Of a stretch of 64,000 nt of DNA, positions 345 to 46,356 are shown in pieces. This stretch comes from an uncultured Armatimonadia bacterium. GTDB taxonomy: Bacteria; Armatimonadota; Zipacnadia; Zipacnadales; UBA11051. Below the pieces are notes generated by a model. The model was not told the origin of the DNA. It made no database searches and saw only the letters and a list, made by a program, of their open reading frames with translations. The position numbers were made by a program, and so were the translations under genes. The DNA is taken from positions 6,155 to 70,154 of the forward strand of contig CAYMIN010000009.1 in assembly GCA_964390495.1 (NCBI GenBank), given 5' to 3'. Position 1 is the stretch's first letter. Every line of letters begins with the position of its first letter.

Positions 345-1190
345 ATGGAGGTGATCGGACCGACCATGGAAACCGAGAAGCTGGAGGAGTATCAGGAGCT
401 GGCGACCAAGATCCGCGCCCACTGCCTGCACATGACCCATCGCGGCATGAGCGGGCACCTGGGCAGCATGTTGTCCATGGCCGACCTGCTGGCGGTGCTG
501 TACACCAGTATCCTGCAGGTGGACCCGCAGAACCCCGACTGGGACGAGCGCGACCGCTTCGTGCTCAGCAAGGGCCACGGTGGCGCGGCTGTCTATGCGG
601 TGCTGGCGGAGAAGGGCTTCTTCCCGATGGAGTGGCTGAATACCTACTACCTCGACGACGGCAAGCTGTCCGGCCACATCAGCCACCACGTCCCGGGGGT
701 GGAGTTCTCCACCGGATCGCTGGGCCATGGGCTGCCGGTGGCCGTCGGCATGGCACTGGCGGCGCGTAATGACGGCAAGCGGCATCGCATTTTTTGCCTG
801 ATGAGCGACGGAGACTGTAACGAGGGCTCGACCTGGGAGGCGCTGATGTTCGCCGCCCACCACCGGTTGGACAACCTCATAGTGATCGTGGACTACAATC
901 GCGTCCAGGCGCTGGGCAAGATGGAAAATGTCATCGAGATGGAGCCGTTTGCGCCCAAGCTGCATCTCTTCGGCTGGAGCGTGCGAGGCATTGACGGGCA
1001 TGATTACGAGGCTATCGAGACGACGCTGTCGGATCTGCCGTTCGAGCCGGGCAAGCCCTCATGGTTGCTGGCCAGCACCACCAAATGCAAGGGCATCAGT
1101 CGGCTGGAGAACACGGTCGGCAGTCACTACGGCTGTGTGAACGATGACGAACTGGCGGAGGCGCTGGCCGAATTGGGGGTGTCAGAATGA
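345..1190 (+). CDS. transketolase, N-terminal (TPP-binding) subunit of a split transketolase
   Basis: SKGHGGAAVYAVLAEKG and GSLGHGLPVAVGMA motifs. Stop overlaps the start of the next gene (ATGA). Confidence 0.85.
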   Translation: MEVIGPTMETEKLEEYQELATKIRAHCLHMTHRGMSGHLGSMLSMADLLAVLYTSILQVDPQNPDWDERDRFVLSKGHGGAAVYAVLAEKGFFPMEWLNTYYLDDGKLSGHISHHVPGVEFSTGSLGHGLPVAVGMALAARNDGKRHRIFCLMSDGDCNEGSTWEALMFAAHHRLDNLIVIVDYNRVQALGKMENVIEMEPFAPKLHLFGWSVRGIDGHDYEAIETTLSDLPFEPGKPSWLLASTTKCKGISRLENTVGSHYGCVNDDELAEALAELGVSE

Positions 1191-2113
1191 GAAGCGCATT
1201 CAACGAAGAGCTGCTCAAGATCGCCGCACAAGATGACCGCATCTACATGGTGCTGGCCGACATCGGCTATGGCGAGATCGAGCCGTTCGCGGAGGCCTTT
1301 CCCGACCGCTTCTACAACTGTGGGGTGGCCGAGCAGAACATGACCGGCGTCGCCTGCGGTCTGGCTATGGAAGGCAAGATCGCCATCACCTACTCGATCG
1401 CCAACTTCCCGACCCTGCGATGCCTGGAGCAGATTCGCAACGATGTCTGCTACCACGATCAGAACGTCAAGATCGTCATCATCGGCGGCGGACTGGCATA
1501 CGGCTCGCTGGGGGTGTCCCACCATTCCACCGAGGACATCGCCATCATGCGGTCGCTGCCGGACTGTGTGGTGGTGTGCCCGGCGGATATCCAAGAAGCC
1601 AGAGCCGCGACCCATGCCATGATCGAGCATCAGGGGGCCTTCTACTACCGCTGCGGCTATAAGAAGGAGCCCGACCTGCACCAAGGCCAGATTGATTTCC
1701 GCCTCGGCGAAGCGATCCAGGTCTCCGACGGCTCGGATGTTACGCTGATAGGGACCGGCACCGTGACCTACCGGGCCTGGCAGGCGGCGGAACTGCTGGC
1801 CGGCGAGGGCATCAAGGCCCGCGTAATCAGCATGCACACCGTCAAGCCGATAGACCGCGAGGCCATCGTTACCGCCGCCCGGCAGACCGGGGCAATCGTC
1901 ACCGTCGAGGAGCACAATATCTGCGGCGGTCTCGGCGGCGCAGTCGCTGAGGTCATCGCCGAGGCCGGAATCGGCATCCGCTTCAAGATGATTGCGCTGC
2001 CGGACCAGTATGTCCACATCGTCGGGACCCACGAATGGCTGCTGGACTACTACGGCTTCTCGCCCCAGGGCATCGCGAACATGGTGCAGGACTTGTTGGC
2101 GAGCGGAAACTAA
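1187..2113 (+). CDS. transketolase, C-terminal (pyrimidine-binding/C-terminal domain) subunit
   Basis: 4-bp overlap with the upstream subunit. Typical transketolase C-terminal half: FPDRFYNCGVAEQNMTGVA ... KPID. Confidence 0.85.
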   Translation: MRSAFNEELLKIAAQDDRIYMVLADIGYGEIEPFAEAFPDRFYNCGVAEQNMTGVACGLAMEGKIAITYSIANFPTLRCLEQIRNDVCYHDQNVKIVIIGGGLAYGSLGVSHHSTEDIAIMRSLPDCVVVCPADIQEARAATHAMIEHQGAFYYRCGYKKEPDLHQGQIDFRLGEAIQVSDGSDVTLIGTGTVTYRAWQAAELLAGEGIKARVISMHTVKPIDREAIVTAARQTGAIVTVEEHNICGGLGGAVAEVIAEAGIGIRFKMIALPDQYVHIVGTHEWLLDYYGFSPQGIANMVQDLLASGN

Positions 2114-2142
2114 TGGGTACTACATCCCAACGACCACATCCC

Positions 2143-2210
2143 CGACTGCCGCGTGGCTCGGGCTTCCAGCCCGAGGCCGTGCGCAGACGCTAGCGTCGGC
2201 GTGAGAGGAT
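2143..2210 (+). repeat. conserved ~67-nt leader element upstream of E1 alpha, related to the TTCCAGCCCGA repeat family
   Basis: Near-identical to 3206-3272 (actgccgcg..gggc.t.ccagcccgaggc.gtgcgcagacg...cgtcggc.tgagagga). Hairpin ctcgggc-ttcca-gcccgag. Palindrome GACGCTAGCGTC. Confidence 0.6.
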
Positions 2211-2224
2211 AATTCAAAGGAACC

Positions 2225-3196
2225 ATGAAACCGACTGAAGAGCAAATGAAAGCAATGCTGCGGACGATGCTAACCATCCGCGGCTTCGAGGCGACCGCCC
2301 GCGCGCTCTATACGGCTAACTGGGAGAGCGGCAACTTTTTGGGCGCGCTGCATTCTTACGAAGGCCAGGAGGCCGTCGCCACCGGCGCGTGCGCCTGCCT
2401 GAGGCAGGACGACTATGTCTTCAGCACCCATCGCGGCCACGGGCACTTCATCGCCAAGGGTGGGGACATCAAGGCAATGTTCGCCGAGCTACTCGGCAAG
2501 GAAGCCGGCTGCAGCCGCGGGCGCGGCGGCTCGATGCACATGTTCGACCCCGGAAAAGGTCTGATGGGCGGCAACGGCATTGTGGGCGGCGGGATTCCCC
2601 TGGCCCTCGGACCCGCCTTCGCCGCCAACTACCTAGGTAGTGACCAGGTCACCGTCACCTTCTTCGGTGACGGCGCCTCCAGCCAGGGCGTATTTCATGA
2701 GTCGTTCAACTTGGCGGCGCTCTGGGACCTGCCCTTGATCTTCGTCTGCGAGAACAACCGCTATGCCGTGGGTACGCCGGCCTCTCAAGGCATTTCGGTG
2801 CCTAACCTATCGGTTCGCGCCGCCGGCTACGGCTGCCCTGGAGTGACGGTGGATGGCGACGACCCGGTGGCCGTCTATGAGGCGGTCAGTGAGGCCATCG
2901 CCCACGCCCGCGCAGGTAACGGCCCCAGCCTCGTCGAGGCCGTGACCCACCGGCATAGCACACACTGTATGGTTATGCGCGAAACTCGCGAAGAGCCGGA
3001 ACTGGACAAAATGAAGGAGTATGACCCCATCCCCCGCTTCGAGCAGCGCCTGCAGGAAAGCGGCATCATCGGGGCCGACGAACTGACGCAACTCAAAGAG
3101 GAAGTGAGCCAACTCATCGAGGCGGCCGTGGCCTTCGCTGAAAACGCCGCCTTCCCTGATCCTGCGACGGTGGCCGATGGTCTGTGGGTAGGCTAG
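2225..3196 (+). CDS. 2-oxoacid (pyruvate/acetoin-type) dehydrogenase E1 component alpha subunit, TPP-dependent
   Basis: E1 alpha motifs HRGHGH, GGNGIVGGGIPLALG and FFGDGASSQG. AAAGGA RBS 4-9 nt upstream of the ATG. Confidence 0.85.
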   Translation: MKPTEEQMKAMLRTMLTIRGFEATARALYTANWESGNFLGALHSYEGQEAVATGACACLRQDDYVFSTHRGHGHFIAKGGDIKAMFAELLGKEAGCSRGRGGSMHMFDPGKGLMGGNGIVGGGIPLALGPAFAANYLGSDQVTVTFFGDGASSQGVFHESFNLAALWDLPLIFVCENNRYAVGTPASQGISVPNLSVRAAGYGCPGVTVDGDDPVAVYEAVSEAIAHARAGNGPSLVEAVTHRHSTHCMVMRETREEPELDKMKEYDPIPRFEQRLQESGIIGADELTQLKEEVSQLIEAAVAFAENAAFPDPATVADGLWVG

Positions 3197-3205
3197 GCGG
3201 GGCCC

Positions 3206-3272
3206 GAACTGCCGCGCACCCGGGCCTGCCAGCCCGAGGCAGTGCGCAGACGACATCGTCGGCATGAGAGGA
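3206..3272 (+). repeat. second copy of the conserved leader element, upstream of E1 beta
   Basis: Aligns to 2143-2210. Palindrome GACGA-CA-TCGTC carries compensatory changes relative to copy 1. Confidence 0.6.
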
Positions 3273-4259
3273 GAACTTAGAGCATTGGCAAAGACGCGAC
3301 AGGTTGTGTTCGCCCGAGCGCTCAATGAGGCGCTCCGTGAGGAGTTCGAGCGCGATGACAGCGTCTTCCTGGTCGGCGAGGAGGTCGGCGGGATCTTTGG
3401 TGTCACCAGGGGTCTGGACCGGCGCTTTGGTGAAAAGCGGGTGCGCTGCACCCCGATCTCGGAGGCGGCCTTCACCGGACTGGCCGTCGGCGCGGCGATG
3501 GTCGGCCTCCGGCCCATCGTCGAGATCATGTACCTCGACTTCGTCACCGTTTGCTGGGACCAGATCGCCAACCAGGCGGCCAAGCTGCGGTATATGTCCG
3601 GCGGCCAGATCAGCCTGCCCCTGGTAATTCGCGGCCAGCAGGGCAACCTCACCCGCGAGGCCGCCCAACATTCCCAACAGATCGAGGGCTGGTGCGCCCA
3701 AGTACCGGGGCTCAAGGTCGTGATGCCGGCCACCGTCGAGGACGCCAAGGGCCTCCTCAAGTCTGCCATTAGGGATGACAATCCGGTCATATTCGTCGAG
3801 CATCGCGGCCTCTATGACCTCAAGGGGCCTATGCCCAAAGGCGAGTACACCACCCCGCTCGGTGTGGCCAAGGTCCACCGCGAAGGCACCGATATCACCG
3901 TTGTCGCCACATCCCTAGCCTTGCAGAAGGCACTGGCAGCGGCGGAAGCCCTCGCCGATGAGATCAGCGTGGAGGTGGTGGACCCGCGCACACTGGTGCC
4001 GCTAGATACGGAGACGATTCTGCAATCGGTACGCAAGACCGGCCGGCTGCTGGTGGCTCACGACGCCCCGGTGCGGCTGGGCTTCGGAGCCGAAGTCGTG
4101 CGCGCGGTTACCGAAGAGGCCTTCGCAGCTCTGCAGACAGCACCTCGTGTAGTCGGCGGAACCAATCTGCCGATGCCGTATAGCTCGGTGCTGGAGGACG
4201 CTTGCATCCCCAGCGAAGATGACATCACACAAGCTATCCGACAGGTGGTGAAGAGTTAG
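3264..4259 (+). CDS. 2-oxoacid dehydrogenase E1 component beta subunit
   Basis: E1 beta / transketolase-like pyrimidine and C-terminal domains (ALNEAL.EE, FLVGEEVG ... ). Start ambiguous: ATG at 3264 or in-frame TTG at 3285, with GAGAGGAG RBS at ~3266-3273. The aminotransferase start abuts the stop codon. Confidence 0.8.
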   Translation: MRGELRALAKTRQVVFARALNEALREEFERDDSVFLVGEEVGGIFGVTRGLDRRFGEKRVRCTPISEAAFTGLAVGAAMVGLRPIVEIMYLDFVTVCWDQIANQAAKLRYMSGGQISLPLVIRGQQGNLTREAAQHSQQIEGWCAQVPGLKVVMPATVEDAKGLLKSAIRDDNPVIFVEHRGLYDLKGPMPKGEYTTPLGVAKVHREGTDITVVATSLALQKALAAAEALADEISVEVVDPRTLVPLDTETILQSVRKTGRLLVAHDAPVRLGFGAEVVRAVTEEAFAALQTAPRVVGGTNLPMPYSSVLEDACIPSEDDITQAIRQVVKS

Positions 4260-12428: not shown

Positions 12429-13655
12429 ATGCAGGCCAGGCTGTACCATGTTGCCATAACCGGGCTCGGGGTCGTCAGCCCTTTGGGCAGCGGCGCCAGT
12501 ACCCTCTGGGAGGGTTTGCTGGCCGGCTGTCGCGGTCTCACTAGCCTGACCAAATTCGACCCCACCGGCCTGCGCAACCAGAAGGCCGGCCAGGTTAATG
12601 ACTGGCAATTCGACCCCGCTGAATATGGCCTCCAGCAAGCGCCTGACGAGGCCACCCAGTTTCTGCTCGCTGCGGCGCACGAGGCGGTCGCCGATGCCGG
12701 TCTCGATGACCGTTTGCACCCAGGCGCGGAGCCTGTCGCGCAGGCAGGGGCAGTGCTGGGGACCAACTTCGGCGGCGCTGCTTCGTGGGAGAGCTACATC
12801 AACGGAGTACTGGTCGGCCGGCCCTCACCCACGGCTTTCGAGCAATTTAGCTTCCACGAGGCGCTATCCCTGCTATCCAGCAGCTTCGCCCTCAGTGGCC
12901 CCTGCAGCCAGCTCTCCATGGCCTGCGCCTCCGGAACTGCCGCTATCGGCTACGGAGCCGAGCTGATACGAACCGGCCAGGCCGAGCTGGTGCTGGTCGG
13001 CGGCTACGATGCCCTGGCTCCCAGTATTCTCAGCGGGCTAAGCCTACTCCGCACCATGACCGATGACGACCTCTATCCGTTTTCGGCCAACCGCAGTGGG
13101 ACCCTTTTCGGTGAGGGCGCGGGCGTGCTGGTGCTGGAGAACCTGCAGCGCGCCCACCAACGCCGCGTGCGCTGCTACGGCGAAGTCTTGGGGGCGTGGC
13201 AGAACAACAATGCTTACCACCTGACCGCCCCCGATGCCGGCGGTGCCGGTATGGCACGAGCCTTGCGGGGAGCGCTGCAGGTAGCGGGAATTGCCCCTGA
13301 GGACCTGGATCACATCAACGCCCACGGCACCGGGACAGAGTACCACGATGTGGCCGAGACCGAGGCGATCAAGGCCGTCCTCGGCCCGGCCGCTTACGAC
13401 ATAACCGTGGTGTCCATAAAGGGGGCTATCTCGCATCTGATGGGGGCAGCCGGGGCCGTCGAGGGTGTTGTGACAGCTCTAGCGCTCTTCCATCAGATGG
13501 TGCCGCCTACCACCAATTACGGCGATCCGGACCCGGCCTGTGACCTGGACTACGTTACCACCGGCGCGCGCCGCCAGCCTATCAAACACGCGGCCTCGCT
13601 CTCAGCCGGCATCGGCGGCGATAACGCGTGTGTGGTCCTGGGCCGGCTTATCTAG
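12429..13655 (+). CDS. fabF: beta-ketoacyl-[ACP] synthase II-like condensing enzyme (intact Cys-His-His triad)
   Basis: Active-site Cys in SMACASGTA, HGTGT present (INAHGTGTEYHD), and second His in SIKGAISHLMGAAG. Confidence 0.85.
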   Translation: MQARLYHVAITGLGVVSPLGSGASTLWEGLLAGCRGLTSLTKFDPTGLRNQKAGQVNDWQFDPAEYGLQQAPDEATQFLLAAAHEAVADAGLDDRLHPGAEPVAQAGAVLGTNFGGAASWESYINGVLVGRPSPTAFEQFSFHEALSLLSSSFALSGPCSQLSMACASGTAAIGYGAELIRTGQAELVLVGGYDALAPSILSGLSLLRTMTDDDLYPFSANRSGTLFGEGAGVLVLENLQRAHQRRVRCYGEVLGAWQNNNAYHLTAPDAGGAGMARALRGALQVAGIAPEDLDHINAHGTGTEYHDVAETEAIKAVLGPAAYDITVVSIKGAISHLMGAAGAVEGVVTALALFHQMVPPTTNYGDPDPACDLDYVTTGARRQPIKHAASLSAGIGGDNACVVLGRLI

Positions 13656-13659
13656 CAAC

Positions 13660-13766
13660 GCGTAGCTCGGCCTGCCCTGAGCTTGTCGAAGGACAGGTGA
13701 GAACGCGGTTCACCGCGTTCTCAGCTTCCAGCTCGAGGTCATTGCCGTGATTACACTGTGCCATTT
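13660..13766. repeat. long copy of a dispersed intergenic repeat element with two hairpins
   Basis: Aligns to 43974-44077 over ~105 nt, roughly 80% identical by eye. Hairpins cctgccc..ggacagg and gagaacgcgg-ttca-ccgcgttctc. Confidence 0.7.
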
Positions 13767-13794
13767 CACTCGGGGATAATCCAGACTACAGACT

Positions 13795-14799: not shown

Positions 14800-15776
14800 G
14801 CTATCCAGCCAAGGAGTTAATCGCCCATTATCGGCTGATGGTCACCATCAGGGAGTTTGAGGAGGCTCTGGATGACCTCTTCAGTCAGGGACTAATCACC
14901 GGCACCGCGCACTTCTGCCGAGGCCAGGAAGCCTGTGCGGTGGGAGCCGTCGCGGCGCTGGAAGCCTCTGATTTGGTGACATCGAATCATCGCGGGCACG
15001 GCCATTTCATCGCCAAAGGCGCGGAACCGGGGCGGCTGATGGCTGAGCTGATGGGCAAGCGGGCCGGCTATTCCGGCGGGCGCGGCGGCTCCCAGCACAT
15101 GGCTGCCTTTGACCTCGGCTTCCTGGGCTCCAACGGAATAACTGCCGGTATGATACCGATCGCGACCGGGGCCGCAATGACCCAGAAGCTCAAGCAGACC
15201 GGCCGCGTCGTACTATGCTTCTTCGGCGACGGGGCTTGCGCTCAGGGCGCCTTTCACGAGGCGATCAACATGGGGGCGCTCTGGGAGCTGCCTATCGTCT
15301 ATTTCCTTGAGAACAATCTCTACGCAATGAGCACGCATGTCGGCGAGAATTTCAAGATCACGGAGCTCGTGCAGTTCGCTGACGCATACGGTCTGGCGGG
15401 GGTCAGCGTTGATGGCAATGACTACTTCGCAGTGCGAGCGACGGTCACTGAGGCTGTGAGCCTGGCCCGCTCCGGAGCCGGGCCGACGCTCATCGAGGCC
15501 CGCACCTACCGCATGTGCGGACACTCCAAGAGCGATGACTGCGAATACCGGTCTGATGAAGAAGAGCGAACCTGGGCGGCCCGGGACCCGCTGCTAGTCA
15601 TGAAAAGCCGGCTCATTGCCGACAGCATTATGGATGAAGCGACGGCGGCAGCAGCCGAGCAGCGAGCTGCCGACGATGTTGCAACGGCGATTGAGTTCGC
15701 CCGCCAAGCATCCGAACCTGACCCTGATACGCTCACCGAGGGGCTTTTCGCTGCTTCATACCTCAAGGCTCGGTAG
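14796..15776 (+). CDS. second 2-oxoacid dehydrogenase E1 alpha subunit paralog (TPP-dependent)
   Basis: HRGHGHFIAKG, GSNGITAGMIPIATG and FFGDGACAQG motifs. ATGA overlap with the KS-like gene. No cognate beta subunit downstream. Confidence 0.8.
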   Translation: MSYPAKELIAHYRLMVTIREFEEALDDLFSQGLITGTAHFCRGQEACAVGAVAALEASDLVTSNHRGHGHFIAKGAEPGRLMAELMGKRAGYSGGRGGSQHMAAFDLGFLGSNGITAGMIPIATGAAMTQKLKQTGRVVLCFFGDGACAQGAFHEAINMGALWELPIVYFLENNLYAMSTHVGENFKITELVQFADAYGLAGVSVDGNDYFAVRATVTEAVSLARSGAGPTLIEARTYRMCGHSKSDDCEYRSDEEERTWAARDPLLVMKSRLIADSIMDEATAAAAEQRAADDVATAIEFARQASEPDPDTLTEGLFAASYLKAR

Positions 15777-24681: not shown

Positions 24682-24942
24682 GTGCGTGGGCGTGTAAAAT
24701 GGTTTGACGCCCAAAAGGGCTACGGCTTCATCGAGCGCGAGGACGAGGAGGATGTTTTCGTCCACTACTCGGCGATTCAGGAAGAGGGCTACAAGACGCT
24801 CGATGACGGCGAGGAGGTAGAGTTCGACGTGGTGCAGGGCGACCGCGGCCCACAAGCTGCGAACGTCGTGCGCATGGGCGGCTCTAGCGCATCGCCGGTA
24901 TCTGACGAAGAAGACGAAGCCGATACCGAGTCGGTTTGGTAG
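24682..24942 (+). CDS. cold-shock protein (CspA family) with an acidic C-terminal extension
   Basis: GTG start with a [21 protein letters not shown] (RNP1) and VFVHYSAI (RNP2). ~20-aa tail rich in D/E. Confidence 0.85.
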
Positions 24943-24988: not shown

Positions 24989-25033
24989 AACCCCGGGGTC
25001 CTCCGAGGGAGGAGAAGGCTGAGGGGTTTTTTG
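24989..25033 (+). terminator. rho-independent terminator downstream of csp
   Basis: GC-rich hairpin (CCCC/GGGG outer stem, CCTCC-GAG-GGAGG inner stem) followed by TTTTTT. Confidence 0.6.
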
Positions 25034-25088
25034 CGATTCCTAAACGGAGGCACGATAGGGCTTATAGACATACAACGCCCTGCCGAAG

Positions 25089-42925: not shown

Positions 42926-43954
42926 ATGGAATACCGACAGCTTGGTCGTACCGGTACGCGCGTCTCAAAGCTGTGTCTGGGCACGATGAACTTCGTCGGC
43001 AGCACGGACCTCGATGAGGCCAAGCGCATTGTTGATGAGGCAATTGACGGAGGTATCAATTTCATAGACACCGCCGACTGCTACGCCCGTGGCGGCTCCG
43101 AGGAGTATCTGGGCATGGCCCTGCAGGAGAACGGGCACCGCGACGATGTGGTGGTGGCAACCAAAGCCGTGGCGAACATGGGTGACGGACCCAACGACCA
43201 CGGAGCCAGCCGCTACCATCTCACCCGTGCCGTCGAGGCCAGCCTCAAGCGTCTGCAGACCGACCGCATTGACCTGTTCTACCTCCACATCACCGACATC
43301 TCCACTCCCATTGACGAGATCCTCGATACCCTCGATGTCCTGGTGCGGCAGGGCAAGATTCTCTACATCGGCACCTCGAAGTGGCCGGTGCCGCTGATCA
43401 TGGAGCTGCTGGCGCTGAGCGACAAGCACGGTCTGCCGCGCACCGTCGCCGAGCAGCCCCCCTACAACCTCACCGACCGGCGCATCGAGATGGAGCTGGT
43501 GTGGACCTGCCTGCGCCACGGCATCGGCATCGTGCCCTTCGGGCCGTTGGCAGGCGGCATTCTCAGCGGCGTATATCGCAAAGGTCAGCCGGCTCCCGCA
43601 GGCCATAAGTTCAAGGAAATCGGCCAGCGCGACGGTCACAACCGCTACACCGAAGCGACTATGGACCTAGTCGAGAAGCTGATGCCGCTGGCTGAGGCGC
43701 GGGGCGTGACGCTGGCCGAGTTCTCCACCGCCTGGCTGATGCAGCGGCCGGGGATCACCGCACCGATAGCCGGGCCGCGTACGGTCGAGCACCTGCGCTC
43801 TTCGCTCAAGGCGTGCGAGATCGAGCTGACGCAGGAGGAGTTGGATAAGGTGGATGAGGCCATCCCGCCGGGCACCAATCTGACCAACTACTGCACGCTG
43901 TATGAGCGGATGTGCCGCGCCGTCAACAAGCCCGAGCCGCTGGGGGCGTTCTAA
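42926..43954 (+). CDS. aldo/keto reductase (AKR11/YhdN-like), paralog 1 of 3
   Basis: MEYRQLGRTGTRVS..LCLG, INFIDTADCY, and a C-terminal NADP-binding region. AGGAGG RBS. Confidence 0.85.
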   Translation: MEYRQLGRTGTRVSKLCLGTMNFVGSTDLDEAKRIVDEAIDGGINFIDTADCYARGGSEEYLGMALQENGHRDDVVVATKAVANMGDGPNDHGASRYHLTRAVEASLKRLQTDRIDLFYLHITDISTPIDEILDTLDVLVRQGKILYIGTSKWPVPLIMELLALSDKHGLPRTVAEQPPYNLTDRRIEMELVWTCLRHGIGIVPFGPLAGGILSGVYRKGQPAPAGHKFKEIGQRDGHNRYTEATMDLVEKLMPLAEARGVTLAEFSTAWLMQRPGITAPIAGPRTVEHLRSSLKACEIELTQEELDKVDEAIPPGTNLTNYCTLYERMCRAVNKPEPLGAF

Positions 43955-43973
43955 GCCCGAAGTACCCACCAGC

Positions 43974-44077
43974 GCGTAGCTCGGCCTGCCCCGAGCCTGT
44001 CGAAGGGCAGGTGAGAATGCGTCAGCATTCTCAGCTTCCAGCCCGAGGCCGTTGGGGTGACCACAGTGCGCCGTTTT
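43974..44077. repeat. second long copy of the intergenic repeat element
   Basis: Aligns to 13660-13766. Hairpins cctgccc..gggcagg (perfect) and gagaatgc-gtca-gcattctc, with compensatory substitutions relative to copy 1. Confidence 0.7.
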
Positions 44078-44181
44078 GCTCGCGTTCGCAAAAGCCCACG
44101 GCATCACTGTCAGCATGTTAGCAGAATCTACCTAGCTTCAGTCGGAAACCTGACCGACGCGACAAGAATAAGGAGGCAGTC

Positions 44182-45207
44182 ATGGAGTACCGACAACTGG
44201 GCCGCACCGGAACCAGAGTCTCAGAGCTCTGTCTCGGCTTGATGATTGACAGTCTGACCGATGAACAGACCTTTATAGACATCGTCAATGAGGCGATTGA
44301 TCTGGGCATCAACTTCCTTGACACCGCCGACTGCTACGGCACCGGCGAATCGGAGCGGCGCTTGGGCAAGGCGCTGGCGCAAAACGGCAAGCGCGATGAC
44401 ATCGTGCTGGCGACCAAAGCCGTCGCGGGCATGGGCCCCGGGCCTAACGACCACGGCGCCAGCCGCTATCACCTCTCCCGCGCAGTCGAGGCCAGCCTCA
44501 AGCGCCTGCAGACCGACCGCATTGACCTGTTCTATCTCCACATCGTGGACATCACCACCCCGCTGGACGAGATCTTCGGCCAGCTCGACATTCTGGTCAA
44601 GCAGGGCAAGATCCTCTATGTCGGCACCTCCAAGTGGCCGGTACCGCTGATCATGGAGGGCCTGATGATGCACGAGAAATACGGCTATCCGCGTATCGTT
44701 GCTGAGGAGCCACCTTACAGCCTCTGCGACCGCGGTATCGAGAACGAACTGGTGTGGACCTGCCTGCGCCACGGCATCGGTCTGTGTACGTGGGGACCAC
44801 TGGCCAGCGGCATCCTCGGCGGCGCCTATCGCAAGGGCCAGCCCTTCCCGGAGGGGCATCGCAAGTCAACGGTGGACCCTTCCGAAGACAAGCGCTTGAC
44901 CGAGGGTGCTCTCGACCTGATCGAGAACCTGATCCCGCTGGCCGAGGCCAGAGGCATAACGCTGCCCGACTTGTGTCACGCCTGGCTGCTGCAGCGGCCC
45001 GGCATCACCGCCCCCATCATCGGCGCGCGCAAGGTCGAGTATCTCCAGGCCGCGGTCAAGGCCACCGAGATCGAGCTAACCCAGGAAGAACTCGACAAAA
45101 TTGATGAATTCGCGCCGCCGGGCAGCGCAGTCAGCAACTACTACGACGGCAATGTCTATGCCCGCATGCGCAATGCCATCAACACCGACAACCCGCTGGG
45201 CTACTGA
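44182..45207 (+). CDS. aldo/keto reductase, paralog 2 of 3
   Basis: ~70-75% identical to the flanking AKRs by eye. AAGGAGG RBS. Confidence 0.85.
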   Translation: MEYRQLGRTGTRVSELCLGLMIDSLTDEQTFIDIVNEAIDLGINFLDTADCYGTGESERRLGKALAQNGKRDDIVLATKAVAGMGPGPNDHGASRYHLSRAVEASLKRLQTDRIDLFYLHIVDITTPLDEIFGQLDILVKQGKILYVGTSKWPVPLIMEGLMMHEKYGYPRIVAEEPPYSLCDRGIENELVWTCLRHGIGLCTWGPLASGILGGAYRKGQPFPEGHRKSTVDPSEDKRLTEGALDLIENLIPLAEARGITLPDLCHAWLLQRPGITAPIIGARKVEYLQAAVKATEIELTQEELDKIDEFAPPGSAVSNYYDGNVYARMRNAINTDNPLGY

Positions 45208-45224
45208 GGCCGGCGCACAGCCAC

Positions 45225-45262
45225 TGTCGCGTAGGTCGGGCTTCCAGCCCGACAATGCCGTA
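45225..45262. repeat. short variant of the same repeat family (gcgtaggtcgggcTTCCAgcccgac...)
   Basis: Shares the 5' gcgtag.tcgg and 3' cttccagcccga / caatgccgtaatg blocks with the long copies, but lacks the central ~50 nt. 7-bp stem gtcgggc/gcccgac around the TTCCA loop. Confidence 0.55.
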
Positions 45263-45321
45263 ATGCCAACTCGCTGCACGGACAGACAACCATCAACTCT
45301 CAGCTAGCCAGGAGGAACACC

Positions 45322-46356
45322 ATGGAGTACCGACAGCTAGGCCGCACCGGAACCAGAGTTTCACAGCTTTGCCTCGGCACCATGAACTTCGGCAATGTCA
45401 CCGATGAGCCGACCGCCCACCAGATGATTGATGAAGCTCTCGACGCGGGGATCAACTTCATTGACACCGCCGATTGCTACCAACGGGGCGTCTCGGAGGA
45501 GTTTATCGGCAGGGCGCTGGCCGAGAACGGCAGGCGCGATGACATCGTGCTGGCAACTAAAGCCGTCGCGGGTATGGGCGAAGGGCCCAACGATCACGGC
45601 GCCAGCCGCTACCACCTGTCGCGCGCGGTTGAGGCCAGCCTCAAGCGCTTGCAAACCGAGCGCATTGACCTGTTCTACCTGCACGTCGTGGATATCACCA
45701 CGCCGATGGATGAGATCTTCGGCCAGCTCGACGTGCTGGTCAAGCAGGGGAAGATCCTCTACGTGGGGACCTCGAAATGGCCGGTGCCGCTGATTATGGA
45801 GGGGCTGATGATGCACGAAAAGTACGACTACCCGCGCATCGTCGCCGAACAGCCGCCATATCAACTATGCGACCGCGGCATCGAAATGGAGCTGGTCTGG
45901 ACCTGCCTGCGCCAAGGTATCGGCATCGTCCCGTGGGGACCGCTGGCCTACGGGTTGCTTACCGGAATGTACCGCAAGGGCCAGCCGATTCCCGAAGGCC
46001 ACCGCTGGTCAGGTGCCGACCCCGACGCCAACAAGCGCTTCACCCATGCGGCCTTGGACCTGGTGGAGAAGCTGATTCCCATCGCCGAGGCTAAGGGCAT
46101 TGACCTACCGGCAATGGCACATGCCTGGCTGCAACAGCGGCCCGGCATCACCTCCCCGATCGTCGGCCCGCGCACTATCGAGCATCTACGCGCCGCCCTG
46201 GCGACCACCGAGATCACCTTCACCCAGGACGAACTTGACGCGATTGATGAGGCCATCCCGCCGGGCACGTGGGTAAGCGACTTCTACTTCGGCAACACCT
46301 ACGCCCACCTGGTGCGCTCGATCAATGACCCGGAGGACCCGACCGGATACCATTGA
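45322..46356 (+). CDS. aldo/keto reductase, paralog 3 of 3
   Basis: Same family signature. AGGAGGAA RBS. Confidence 0.85.
   Translation: MEYRQLGRTGTRVSQLCLGTMNFGNVTDEPTAHQMIDEALDAGINFIDTADCYQRGVSEEFIGRALAENGRRDDIVLATKAVAGMGEGPNDHGASRYHLSRAVEASLKRLQTERIDLFYLHVVDITTPMDEIFGQLDVLVKQGKILYVGTSKWPVPLIMEGLMMHEKYDYPRIVAEQPPYQLCDRGIEMELVWTCLRQGIGIVPWGPLAYGLLTGMYRKGQPIPEGHRWSGADPDANKRFTHAALDLVEKLIPIAEAKGIDLPAMAHAWLQQRPGITSPIVGPRTIEHLRAALATTEITFTQDELDAIDEAIPPGTWVSDFYFGNTYAHLVRSINDPEDPTGYH

Follow-up and report, generated by a model that had tools for sequence, protein, structure and literature searches.

A REP-containing unit repeated before the E1 alpha and E1 beta genes of an uncultured Armatimonadia bacterium

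Introduction

The intercistronic structure between malE and malF of E. coli is a REP. Protective structures at intergenic 3' ends lead to differential decay within operons (PMC5927463). Translation is lowered by REPs that lie fewer than 16 nt away from a stop codon (Liang et al. 2015, cited by PMC12306157). One class of these elements, the GTAG-tagged REPs, is mobilised by RAYT or TnpA-REP tyrosine transposases (Nunvar 2010, PMC2817692; Di Nocera 2013, PMC3733652). In these REPs the tag variants GTRG and GTGG are tolerated, double changes that preserve the palindrome are found among copies, and clusters of REPs are reiterated together with flanking DNA (PMC3733652). Armatimonadota are not among the phyla named in that survey.

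Here we analyse two similar spacers that precede the E1 alpha and E1 beta genes of an uncultured Armatimonadia bacterium. The initial annotation had described them as a shared structured leader whose palindromes differ by compensatory changes, and had proposed a dedicated cis-regulatory RNA coordinating the two E1 subunits. We find a unit of two parts, one assigned to a dispersed REP family and the other to the native leader of E1 beta; the unit as a whole was probably duplicated locally.

Results

Two copies of one unit in the E1 spacers

The window is the whole stretch of 64,000 nt that was analysed (assembly GCA_964390495.1). Adding about 6 kb on the upstream side (L001, L226) and about 4 kb on the downstream side (L231) brought the covered part of the source genome to some 74 kb. 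The genes and spacer units concerned are the following.

1187..2113, + strand: upstream gene, transketolase C-terminal subunit (PF02779/PF02780, gene call; stop TAA at 2111-2113)
2140..2212, + strand: putative composite unit before E1 alpha, made of the 5' flank ACTGCCGCG, a REP, a linker, a small hairpin and an SD-like block (repeat search, blastn-short, nhmmer)
2225..3196, + strand: E1 alpha gene, 323 aa (PF00676, 279.7 bits; gene call; start ATG at 2225)
3203..3275, + strand: putative composite unit before E1 beta, a degenerate REP lying 5' of the native hairpin and SD (repeat search, blastn-short, leader alignment)
3285..4259, + strand: E1 beta gene, 324 aa (PF02779 and PF02780; gene call; called start TTG at 3285)

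Both spacers lie inside a tightly packed cluster of co-directional genes. The two units align without gaps, 58 of 73 positions being identical (2140-2212 against 3203-3275; 79.5%, far above chance), and in the repeat search of the 64-kb window the similarity extended to 80 nt at 78%, again gapless (2140-2219 against 3203-3282). Repeat search and blastn-short therefore confirm that look-alike segments precede the two genes, at the places first reported. The identity of about 85% given for them is reached only in a 44-nt core (2166-2209 against 3229-3272; 88.6%, E = 2e-8, blastn-short in the 64-kb window), whereas the whole unit stands at about 79%. The region is 100% identical in three independent assemblies (ENA ERZ27256778, JGI 3300017991 and JGI 3300029258).

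Searched as an nhmmer profile, on sequence only, the full-length 73-nt unit matched 2140-2212 and 3203-3275 and nothing else in 1.48 Mb, which included about 430 kb of REP-rich relatives. A 24-nt pattern spanning the junction was likewise confined to the two E1 spacers, shuffled sequences giving an expectation of 0.

Assignment of the 5' half to a REP family

Five REP copies were found in the window, all of them in spacers.

2153..2175, + strand: REP proper of the E1-alpha copy; tag GTGG (2153-2156), stem CTCGGGC (2157-2163) with GCCCGAG (2169-2175), loop TTCCA (2164-2168)
3216..3238, + strand: degenerate REP of the E1-beta copy; GCAC in place of the GTGG tag, remaining stem CGGGC (3221-3225) with GCCCG (3232-3236)
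13653..13740, + strand: composite r13, nested like r44, between two ketoacyl-synthase genes (model R1, 12.4 bits at 13653-13690)
43967..44052, + strand: composite r44, a tagged REP variant (43967-44004), a nested palindromic insert and the REP right half GCTTCCAGCCCGAGGCCGT (44034-44052); R1, 21.6 bits
45222..45262, + strand: best REP copy of the window, CGCGTAGGTCGGGCTTCCAGCCCGAC, with an aldo/keto reductase paralogue on either side (R1, 51.9 bits, E = 1.6e-9)

The family consensus, CGCGTAG-GTCGGGC-TTCCA-GCCCGAC, is 26 nt long and almost invariant; its GT(A/G)G tag is unpaired, its G+C-rich stem has 7 bp and its loop reads TTCCA. The E1-alpha stem-loop, with 7 bp and the same loop, falls within the range for REP stem-loops (5-13 bp, usually 6-9), and its tag is the tolerated variant GTGG. 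This copy was recognised at 2144-2184 (47.8 bits, E = 1.2e-8) by model R1, a covariance model built from 62 external copies, none of which came from this genome. In the E1-beta copy, 5 bp of the stem are left together with one C.A mismatch. Model R1 did not detect it (weakest listed match 6.9 bits, E <= 10), and its membership of the family would follow from its likeness to the E1-alpha copy (79% identity). GTAG is the tag at 45222, 43967 and 13653, and the copy at 45222 has the 5' flank ACTGYCGCG in common with both E1 copies. Composites appear to have been copied elsewhere in the window too: r13 and r44 are 87.5% identical over 80 nt.

Each of the five copies has + strand genes on both sides, and its tag, or what remains of it, stands 7-38 nt past the upstream stop. 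REPs are expected between co-directional or convergent genes, close to where the upstream ORF ends, and the five copies agree with this; the same pattern was described for uni-REPs (PMC3733652).

Outside the window, the hairpin 17-mer matched at least 113 loci of a genome-contig collection. GTAG or GTGG stands one base 5' of the stem in 64 of the 125 matches listed, and most of them also have CGCGTAGGTCGGGCTTCCAGCCCGAC. Model R1 gave 97 matches in related MAGs (433 kb of loci, mostly Armatimonadota), these loci having been picked for containing a match. The family also occurs in MAGs labelled as several other phyla. External copies stand alone, in tandem or in inverted pairs (L018, L071, L053, L056). 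Among tagged external copies, 37 of 66 fall in long stop-free runs, by a test that, like simple ORF calling, is unreliable in G+C-rich DNA. Where two co-directional neighbours could be assigned outside the window, on crude gene calls, 16 copies had the orientation of the genes and 9 the opposite one. Since both orientations occur, an orientation-dependent RNA role for the REP family is not indicated.

A Y1_Tnp (RAYT-like) ORF was found in one related MAG (L068, 673-1248 on the minus strand; PF01797, 25.8 bits for a cut-off of 23), flanked by inverted copies of the hairpin at 607-623 (+) and 1298-1314 (-), and a partial homologue lies at the end of a Zipacnadia contig (L109). With an approximate RAYT sequence and then the L068 protein as queries, neither the window nor the 6 kb added upstream yielded a RAYT gene. 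For the source organism, copy number and RAYT association are extrapolated from these relatives and may be similar.

On these grounds we assign the 5' half of each unit (about 2144-2184 and 3207-3247) to a dispersed family of GTAG-tagged REPs. The likeness to the described elements covers the stem and short loop, the tag of the E1-alpha copy, the subfamilies with complementary stem changes and the position near the upstream stop between co-directional genes. Judging from related MAGs, it would extend to many dispersed intergenic copies in singletons, tandems and inverted dimers and, from one such MAG, to a Y1 transposase with inverted copies. Unlike plain GTAG-tagged REPs, one E1 copy comes with what appears to be a duplicated piece of native leader, and the other has lost its tag. 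REPINs and BIMEs are approached by relatives, which have true inverted doublets, but each E1 unit holds a single REP, and its second hairpin is unrelated to it in sequence. The E1 spacers gave one R1 match each, minus-strand matches being the same palindrome reversed, and no inverted pair 20-100 bp apart was seen. The exact consensus was not found in a literature search.

The 3' half and the native E1-beta leader

The 3' halves contain the following elements.

2186..2197, + strand: small palindrome GACGC-TA-GCGTC (hairpin 2), putatively copied from the E1-beta leader, its homology to relatives' E1-beta leaders running through the E1-beta copy
2203..2209, + strand: SD-like GAGAGGA, 16 nt 5' of the E1-alpha ATG (2225)
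3249..3260, + strand: native small hairpin GACGA-CA-TCGTC, from the match to the Zipacnadia orthologue leader
3266..3273, + strand: native E1-beta SD GAGAGGAG; GAGAGGAG(A/C)ACT is kept in two orthologous leaders (L218, L227)

Both palindromes read as the initial annotation had described them. Orthologous E1alpha-E1beta spacers measure 45 nt in Zipacnadia (90% E1-beta identity), and 59, 42 and 21 nt at 77, 73 and 68% identity. In none of these four lineages does the spacer contain a REP, and the composite unit is absent from all four operons. Orthologous spacers keep GAGAGGAG(A/C)ACT..AGAG.ATTGGC. In the anchored register, the 21 nt located 5' of the E1-beta SD match the Zipacnadia orthologue at 12 of 21 positions (shuffle p = 0.0025). 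The two closest lineages (L218 and L227) have a small hairpin of other sequence directly 5' of the SD. A universally conserved hairpin at this place was considered and rejected, because the feature is unclear in L224 and L229 and absent from L233, the 68% orthologue. These comparisons identify the 3' half, small hairpin plus GAGAGGAG, as the native translation-initiation leader of E1 beta.

The situation before E1 alpha is different. Relatives have other E1-alpha leaders (GGCGGAGAGATTATG and GACGGAGACAACATG), and in L227 the leader is a plain 20-nt spacer. Because these leaders are unrelated to that of the window, the E1-alpha copy would be the secondary one. Its GAGAGGA lies 16 nt from the ATG and is therefore probably a passenger; a further SD-like AAGGA is present at 2217-2221, nearer the start. 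Both copies do end in TGAGAGGA, as was first noted of a shared RBS block, but the spacing to the start codons differs (16 nt for E1 alpha against 11-13 nt for E1 beta), and what had been taken for a common regulatory part corresponds to the ancestral E1-beta SD.

Folding, covariation and regulatory signals

In the small palindrome a single pair differs between the copies, C-G against A-T, and it would close a 2-nt loop. RNAalifold, run on the two copies, predicted 22 pairs, none of which had changed on both sides, and left the palindrome pair unpaired. The compensatory changes thus do not amount to covariation: they concern one pair in two sequences. The unit being absent from orthologues, there are no independent lineages in which covariation could be followed. 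Double changes that preserve a palindrome are, besides, a general property of the REP family here.

Clustered changes do keep or improve pairing. TGG to CAC makes a perfect GCGCAC/GTGCGC stem, GCGCAC (3214-3219) being the exact reverse complement of GTGCGC (3242-3247), and CTAG to ACAT falls in hairpin 2. Selection on structure would account for these changes, and so would templated mutation.

Fold z-scores of the E1 spacers were weak (-0.7 to -1.7). Sequestration of the SD was considered and rejected, as the SD is unpaired in all predicted folds. Rfam 15 gave no match in the whole window at gathering thresholds; in 2050-3350 the best matches of an E-value scan reached 14-20 bits, against gathering scores of 40-96. 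A scan for promoter-like or terminator-like sites was negative in both spacers, and no T-run of the kind found in intrinsic terminators or attenuators follows either hairpin.

Discussion

Origin of the two copies

We consider it likely that the shared unit is a composite of a REP and the native E1-beta leader, locally duplicated, and that its hairpins are generic intercistronic ones. One REP would first have inserted between E1 alpha and E1 beta, immediately before the native hairpin and SD. A piece of about 80 nt, comprising the REP, the hairpin, the SD and a few bases, would then have been copied to a site 1063 nt further upstream, between the transketolase and E1-alpha genes, where it took the place of the older E1-alpha leader. 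REP-anchored ectopic gene conversion is one conceivable route, duplication another. The copies would later have diverged by about 20%, the E1-beta copy losing its tag. The E1 copies differ by 20.5%, whereas four-fold sites of E1 beta are 64.5% identical to Zipacnadia, that is 35.5% different. With less divergence between the copies than at neutral sites relative to the nearest relative, recency alone explains their similarity.

Alternative readings

A cis-regulatory RNA leader, dedicated or exapted, would offer a protein, an sRNA or a processing RNase the same target at both places, and would match the amounts of E1 alpha and E1 beta. We regard it as unlikely. Before the two subunit genes of a single enzyme the unit does have the same orientation and a similar distance from the end of the REP hairpin to the start codon (49 nt for alpha, 46 nt for beta), the differences between copies favour pairing, and the two closest orthologues place a small hairpin of their own before the E1-beta SD. 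However, the 5' half is a multi-copy REP, orthologous operons do without the unit, L227 having a plain 20-nt spacer before E1 alpha and L233 no small hairpin, and the distance from SD to start is not the same in the two copies. The SD is free in all predicted folds, the z-scores are weak, Rfam gives no match, RNAalifold finds no compensatory pair, and recency explains the likeness. What stands of the initial annotation is a common hairpin-forming unit whose differences tend to keep or improve pairing; a dedicated leader coordinating the E1 subunits is not supported.

It is rather improbable that the unit is one longer non-autonomous mobile element of about 75 nt (REP hairpin, second hairpin and outward SD) inserted twice independently. 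Some REP subfamilies do carry conserved 3' extensions of about 40 nt, in this window (r13, r44) and in MAG CSMAG_1176 (L102), and both flanks of the REP are common to the two E1 copies. Against this, the E1-beta copy has a 3' part whose orthologues are the REP-free E1-beta leaders of relatives, and the 1.48 Mb searched contained no third full-length copy. The 3' half GTGCGCAGACGNNNNCGTCGGC gave 102 matches to metagenome contigs, all of them chance matches with unrelated flanks; since the known copies from JGI 3300017991 and 3300029258 were not returned, the source organism is missing from that collection, which makes the outcome a weak negative. A generic REP or MITE, the outcome that the initial annotation had set against its own proposal, is therefore a true description of the 5' half only, which is multi-copy in the window and present in scores in related MAGs, and not of the 73-nt unit with its two sites in 1.48 Mb.

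Finally, an operator for a dimeric DNA-binding protein, formed by the 12-bp palindrome GACGCTAGCGTC or GACGACATCGTC before each E1 gene, is very improbable: the E1-alpha palindrome is perfect over 12 bp and the symmetric change keeps the two-fold symmetry, but with a repressor one would expect the half-site bases to be conserved, not both changed, neither of these spacers within a packed co-directional cluster has a promoter-like site, orthologues have unrelated small palindromes there, and the pattern occurs nowhere else in the window, at up to 3 mismatches, in a convincing context.

Likely effect on the transcript

Under the preferred origin, a REP joined to a copied native leader, the stable hairpins would act as generic intercistronic structures in a long co-directional cluster and not as a specific sensor or riboregulator, to judge from E. 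coli REPs. An effect on mRNA decay or translation termination is likely by this analogy. The hairpins may be barriers to 3'-5' exonucleases, stabilising upstream mRNA segments. In this the locus would resemble the malE-malF spacer and the protective structures of PMC5927463, with a stable hairpin inside a polycistronic unit and an expected exonuclease block; it differs from malE-malF in that the same structure precedes two consecutive cistrons. A stem within about 15 nt of the upstream stop may also obstruct terminating ribosomes. The E1-beta copy is placed for this, with 12 nt from the stop to the first predicted pair (3209), like the stop-proximal REPs of Liang, Rudd & Deutscher (2015, as cited in PMC12306157). 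The E1-alpha copy, with a gap of 32 nt, is beyond the 15-nt range, and the effect itself is known from E. coli.

We think improbable a further step in which the duplicated composite was exapted, giving both E1 cistrons the same processing, stability and initiation context and so helping a 1:1 ratio of E1 alpha to E1 beta. If this were true, a selfish REP would have carried a functional ribosome-binding leader from a gene to its neighbour.

Meaning

Nothing in these results points to a dedicated regulatory RNA at the E1 genes. The case calls for caution, as a shared structured leader with compensatory changes can mimic a riboregulator; here the likely ingredients are a REP palindrome and a recently copied native leader. 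It also brings to light a GTAG-type REP family that is abundant in Armatimonadota, in class Zipacnadia and others, beyond the phyla named in PMC3733652. In this lineage, copying of REP spacers appears to take along functional sequence from their flanks, such as an SD, which is one way to rewire operon leaders. If the hairpins shape the decay of this long catabolic operon, a mechanism of the malEFG type would extend to a poorly studied phylum.

A shared unit ahead of both E1 genes

The spacer between the stop codon of the transketolase C-terminal subunit gene (2111-2113) and the E1 alpha ATG (2225) measures 111 nt, and that between the E1 alpha stop (3194-3196) and the called E1 beta start, a TTG at 3285, measures 88 nt (sequence read over 1900-3500; both E1 identities confirmed by Pfam). 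They are the largest gaps in a tightly packed, co-directional cluster extending from MTTB through a short-chain dehydrogenase, where the sole other gap above 20 nt is 67 nt long. Each contains one copy of a 73-nt unit, made of a repetitive extragenic palindrome (REP) followed by a small hairpin (hairpin 2) and a Shine-Dalgarno sequence (SD):

2140-2212, unit ahead of E1 alpha
3203-3275, unit ahead of E1 beta

The initial annotation had proposed that both genes share a structured leader, and a repeat search of the window confirmed the shared unit: an ungapped 80-nt alignment of 2140-2219 with 3203-3282 has 78% identity, with a core (2166-2209 versus 3229-3272) at 88.6% (E = 2×10−8). The quoted palindromes are present as described. 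Over the 73-nt unit, 58 positions are identical. The junction pattern was found only at the two E1 spacers, with 0 expected in shuffles. By fuzzy matching and nhmmer in 1.48 Mb, the whole unit matches end to end at these two spacers only, and so does the 3′ half sought separately, other matches being to the REP part alone. When public metagenomes were scanned for the 3′ half, only chance matches came up; this result carries little weight, since the organism's own known copies were not returned either. The E1-spacer sequence is 100% identical across three independent assemblies, and population variation is therefore absent there.

A 26-codon ORF (2113-2193), starting in a TAATG overlap with the transketolase stop, crosses the REP and terminates at a TAG in the hairpin 2 loop; as nothing equivalent exists in the E1-beta spacer, it is probably fortuitous. 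About 12.5 kb farther downstream is a second E1-alpha-like gene (15037-15336 versus 2478-2777, DNA 73-74% identical, two stretches). Elsewhere, an apparent 503-nt gap holds a cold-shock-domain protein gene (24682-24942; PF00313, 106 bits), followed at about 25010-25050 by a G+C hairpin and T-run that looks like its terminator.

The 5′ half belongs to a REP family

Across a collection with one genome per species, the 17-mer TCGGGCTTCCAGCCCGA matched at no fewer than 113 loci. Among the matches listed, 64 of 125 had GTAG or GTGG exactly one base 5′ of the stem, mostly reading CGCGTAG-GTCGGGC-TTCCA-GCCCGAC, and the closing pair was G..C (52) or C..G (8) in 60 of these 64; the rest, among them four near-identical Variovorax loci, were chance matches whose flanks are unrelated. 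Tagged copies, again among the matches listed, were numerous per MAG in Candidatus Zipacnadia, a class of Armatimonadota (PMC10290634), and in other Armatimonadota, and fewer in MAGs labelled Poribacteria, WS1, Planctomycetota and others. Single copies, tandems and inverted pairs all occurred. With a covariance model trained on 62 external copies only (R1), 97 matches were found in 433 kb of related-MAG loci, across which two basal stem pairs covary (GC 76, CG 11; UA 89, GC 3, CG 1).

These features match the definition of GTAG-tagged REPs, in which a 6-9 bp stem with a short loop bears a terminal GTAG or GTRG, subfamilies differ by complementary stem changes, and copies sit close to the upstream stop where the neighbouring genes are co-directional or convergent (PMC3733652). 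That survey does not list Armatimonadota. The E1 copies are one new and one decayed member of this kind.

A Y1 transposase domain (PF01797, 25.8 bits) was identified in an ORF of a Fimbriimonas MAG (L068, region 607-1314); inverted hairpin copies lie on either side of this ORF, as has been described for REP-associated tyrosine transposases (RAYTs). Compared with the main family, these copies have their GTGG 4 nt farther away from the stem. The ORF is missing from the ORF listing though its frame is open across the region, which suggests that a conventional start codon is absent or the gene is damaged.

Besides Armatimonadota, the REP hairpin was also seen in MAGs labelled Poribacteria (L064, L069, L108; contigs of 2.5 and 5.6 Mb), WS1 (L067, L099), Gemmatales (L079), a Caldithrix MAG (L026) and Anaerolineales (L081, L112). 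Copies there are tagged with GTAG or a sequence close to it and in most cases show all 26 nt of CGCGTAGGTCGGGCTTCCAGCCCGAC. Binning error is unlikely for those on multi-megabase contigs, and the phylum spread of this single REP sequence is unusually wide.

REP copies in the window, with R1 score
45222-45262, REP, 51.9 bits
2144-2184, REP of the E1-alpha copy, 47.8 bits
43967-44004, tagged REP variant, 21.6 bits
13653-13690, tagged REP variant, 12.4 bits

The E1-beta copy was undetected by R1 in the window scan. Identity between 45223-45252 and 2145-2174 is 90%, and the right half of the motif recurs at 44034-44052 and 13715-13740. Each of the five window copies has co-directional genes on both sides and follows the upstream stop codon at a distance of 7-38 nt. 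In a tandem array of three aldo/keto reductase paralogues (42926-46356; PF00248, DNA identity 67-82%), the second and third spacers hold REP copies, and none lies upstream of the first gene.

The 3′ half resembles the E1-beta leader of relatives

Orthologous operons were located via E1-beta homologues; the three Zipacnadia MAGs (L218-L220) have the gene order of the window.

E1alpha-E1beta spacer length (E1-beta identity)
Window, 88 nt
Zipacnadia, three MAGs, 45 nt (90%)
L227, 59 nt (77%)
L229, 42 nt (73%)
L233, 21 nt (68%)

No R1 match was found in the E1alpha-E1beta spacers of the relatives listed. The 3′ end of the window unit is conserved in their leaders: CGCAAGCCGTATCGTTTGCGC-GAGAGGAGAACTCAGAGCATTGGCAAAC in Zipacnadia, CGCAGACGACATCGTCGGCAT-GAGAGGAGAACTTAGAGCATTGGCAAAG in the window and ..GTGCCAATGGCAT-GAGAGGAGCACT.. 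in L227. In the 21 nt 5′ of the SD, window and Zipacnadia agree at 12 positions, in the register set by the adjacent alignment (shuffle p = 0.0025), and at the equivalent place L218 and L227, the two closest orthologues, each have a small hairpin that differs in sequence. Conservation in REP-free spacers points to hairpin 2 and the "RBS block" as E1 beta's native leader; the novelty of this lineage would then be some 45-48 nt of REP inserted 5′ of it.

The relatives' E1-alpha leaders are unlike that of the window (Zipacnadia, GGCGGAGAGATTATG; L227, a 20-nt spacer with GACGGAGACAACATG). Because it contains E1-beta-leader sequence, the E1-alpha unit appears to be a secondary copy of the composite. 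GAGAGGA stands 16 nt before the E1-alpha ATG versus 11-13 nt before the E1-beta TTG; at such unequal distances the block, noted initially as shared, is not placed like a common ribosome-binding site.

REPs occur in these spacers in relatives too. The Zipacnadia transketolase-E1alpha spacer has its own REP, in opposite orientation directly after the stop codon (R1 32.2 bits), and the L236 orthologue has a stem-variant REP before E1 beta; the E1 spacers are recurrent REP landing sites. The L236 spacer reads GGAG-GACAGGC-TTCCT-GCCTGTC-AATGCCGTT, its stem altered on both sides relative to 45232-45262. In L233, a 370-nt spacer (2473-2842) after E1 beta (68% orthologue) is full of G+C-rich palindromes, its edges, GAGTCGGGC... 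and ...GCCCGACCTACGG, resembling inverted REP ends. The relatives differ in gene order around the E1 genes (L221/L222, L224, L229, L233 and L236 compared with 345-4259), and REP-like hairpins recur in their spacers. L221 has E1alpha, TK-N, TK-C, E1beta, and the transketolase pair is absent beside the E1 genes in L224, L229 and L233.

Divergence of the two copies

The two E1 copies differ at 20.5% of positions, less than the four-fold degenerate sites of E1 beta between window and Zipacnadia (35.5%), so that a copy event after the split would explain their identity with no need of selective constraint. Identity by segment is 72-89%, no higher in the hairpins than in the rest of the unit.

The palindrome differences had been read as compensatory. 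RNAalifold on both copies gave 0 pairs changed on both sides; the C-G versus A-T pair in question would close a 2-nt loop and is left open. Three changes are one-sided, from G.U to Watson-Crick in the E1-beta copy. The differences are clustered: with TGG→CAC the tag is lost and GCGCAC can pair perfectly with GTGCGC 22 nt downstream, and CTAG→ACAT falls at the centre of hairpin 2. Templated mutation in quasi-palindromes yields multi-base, palindrome-perfecting changes, and the clusters fit this process and selection for pairing equally.

Regulation and origin of the repeat

Nothing specific supports a dedicated regulatory leader. The predicted 57-nt folds are stable, at -26 to -31 kcal/mol, but shuffling this G+C-rich sequence gives energies just 1.7 sd less favourable; none of the folds pairs the SD. 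Rfam gave no match for a structured RNA family at gathering scores in the whole window, and only noise by E-value threshold in 2050-3350; neither E1 spacer has a sigma-70-like promoter or intrinsic-terminator-like site. The regulatory reading is quite improbable. The repeat is real and its explanation ordinary: a REP and a copied leader account for it.

If transcribed, the hairpins would act as generic intercistronic structures. In E. coli, intergenic 3′ structures shield upstream operon segments from 3′-5′ exonucleases and set subunit stoichiometry (PMC5927463). When a REP lies less than 16 nt from a stop codon, the gene upstream is translated less (Liang et al. 2015, cited in PMC12306157). 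The gap between the upstream stop and the start of pairing in the predicted stem is 12 nt in the E1-beta copy and 32 nt in the E1-alpha copy.

Two composite repeats (13649-13772 and 43963-44082), 87% identical and 30 kb apart, represent a REP subfamily with a conserved 3′ extension of about 40 nt, also found in MAG CSMAG_1176 (L102, 409-480). Their left arm is split by the same nested palindromic insert of about 57 nt (CCTGCCCYGAGCYTGTCGAAGGRCAGG + GAGAAYGCG..CGCRTTCTC); the nested composite was therefore itself copied, and REP-plus-flank reiteration thus happens in this genome. Reiteration of REPs together with flanking DNA has been described (PMC3733652).

Our comparisons show that the E1 unit joins a REP-family palindrome to native leader sequence, and a local copy event probably accounts for its two occurrences. 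Candidate routes would be REP-anchored gene conversion, duplication, or transposase-mediated mobilisation with flanking DNA. The twist of the E1 case is that a piece of a functional leader was copied along with the REP.
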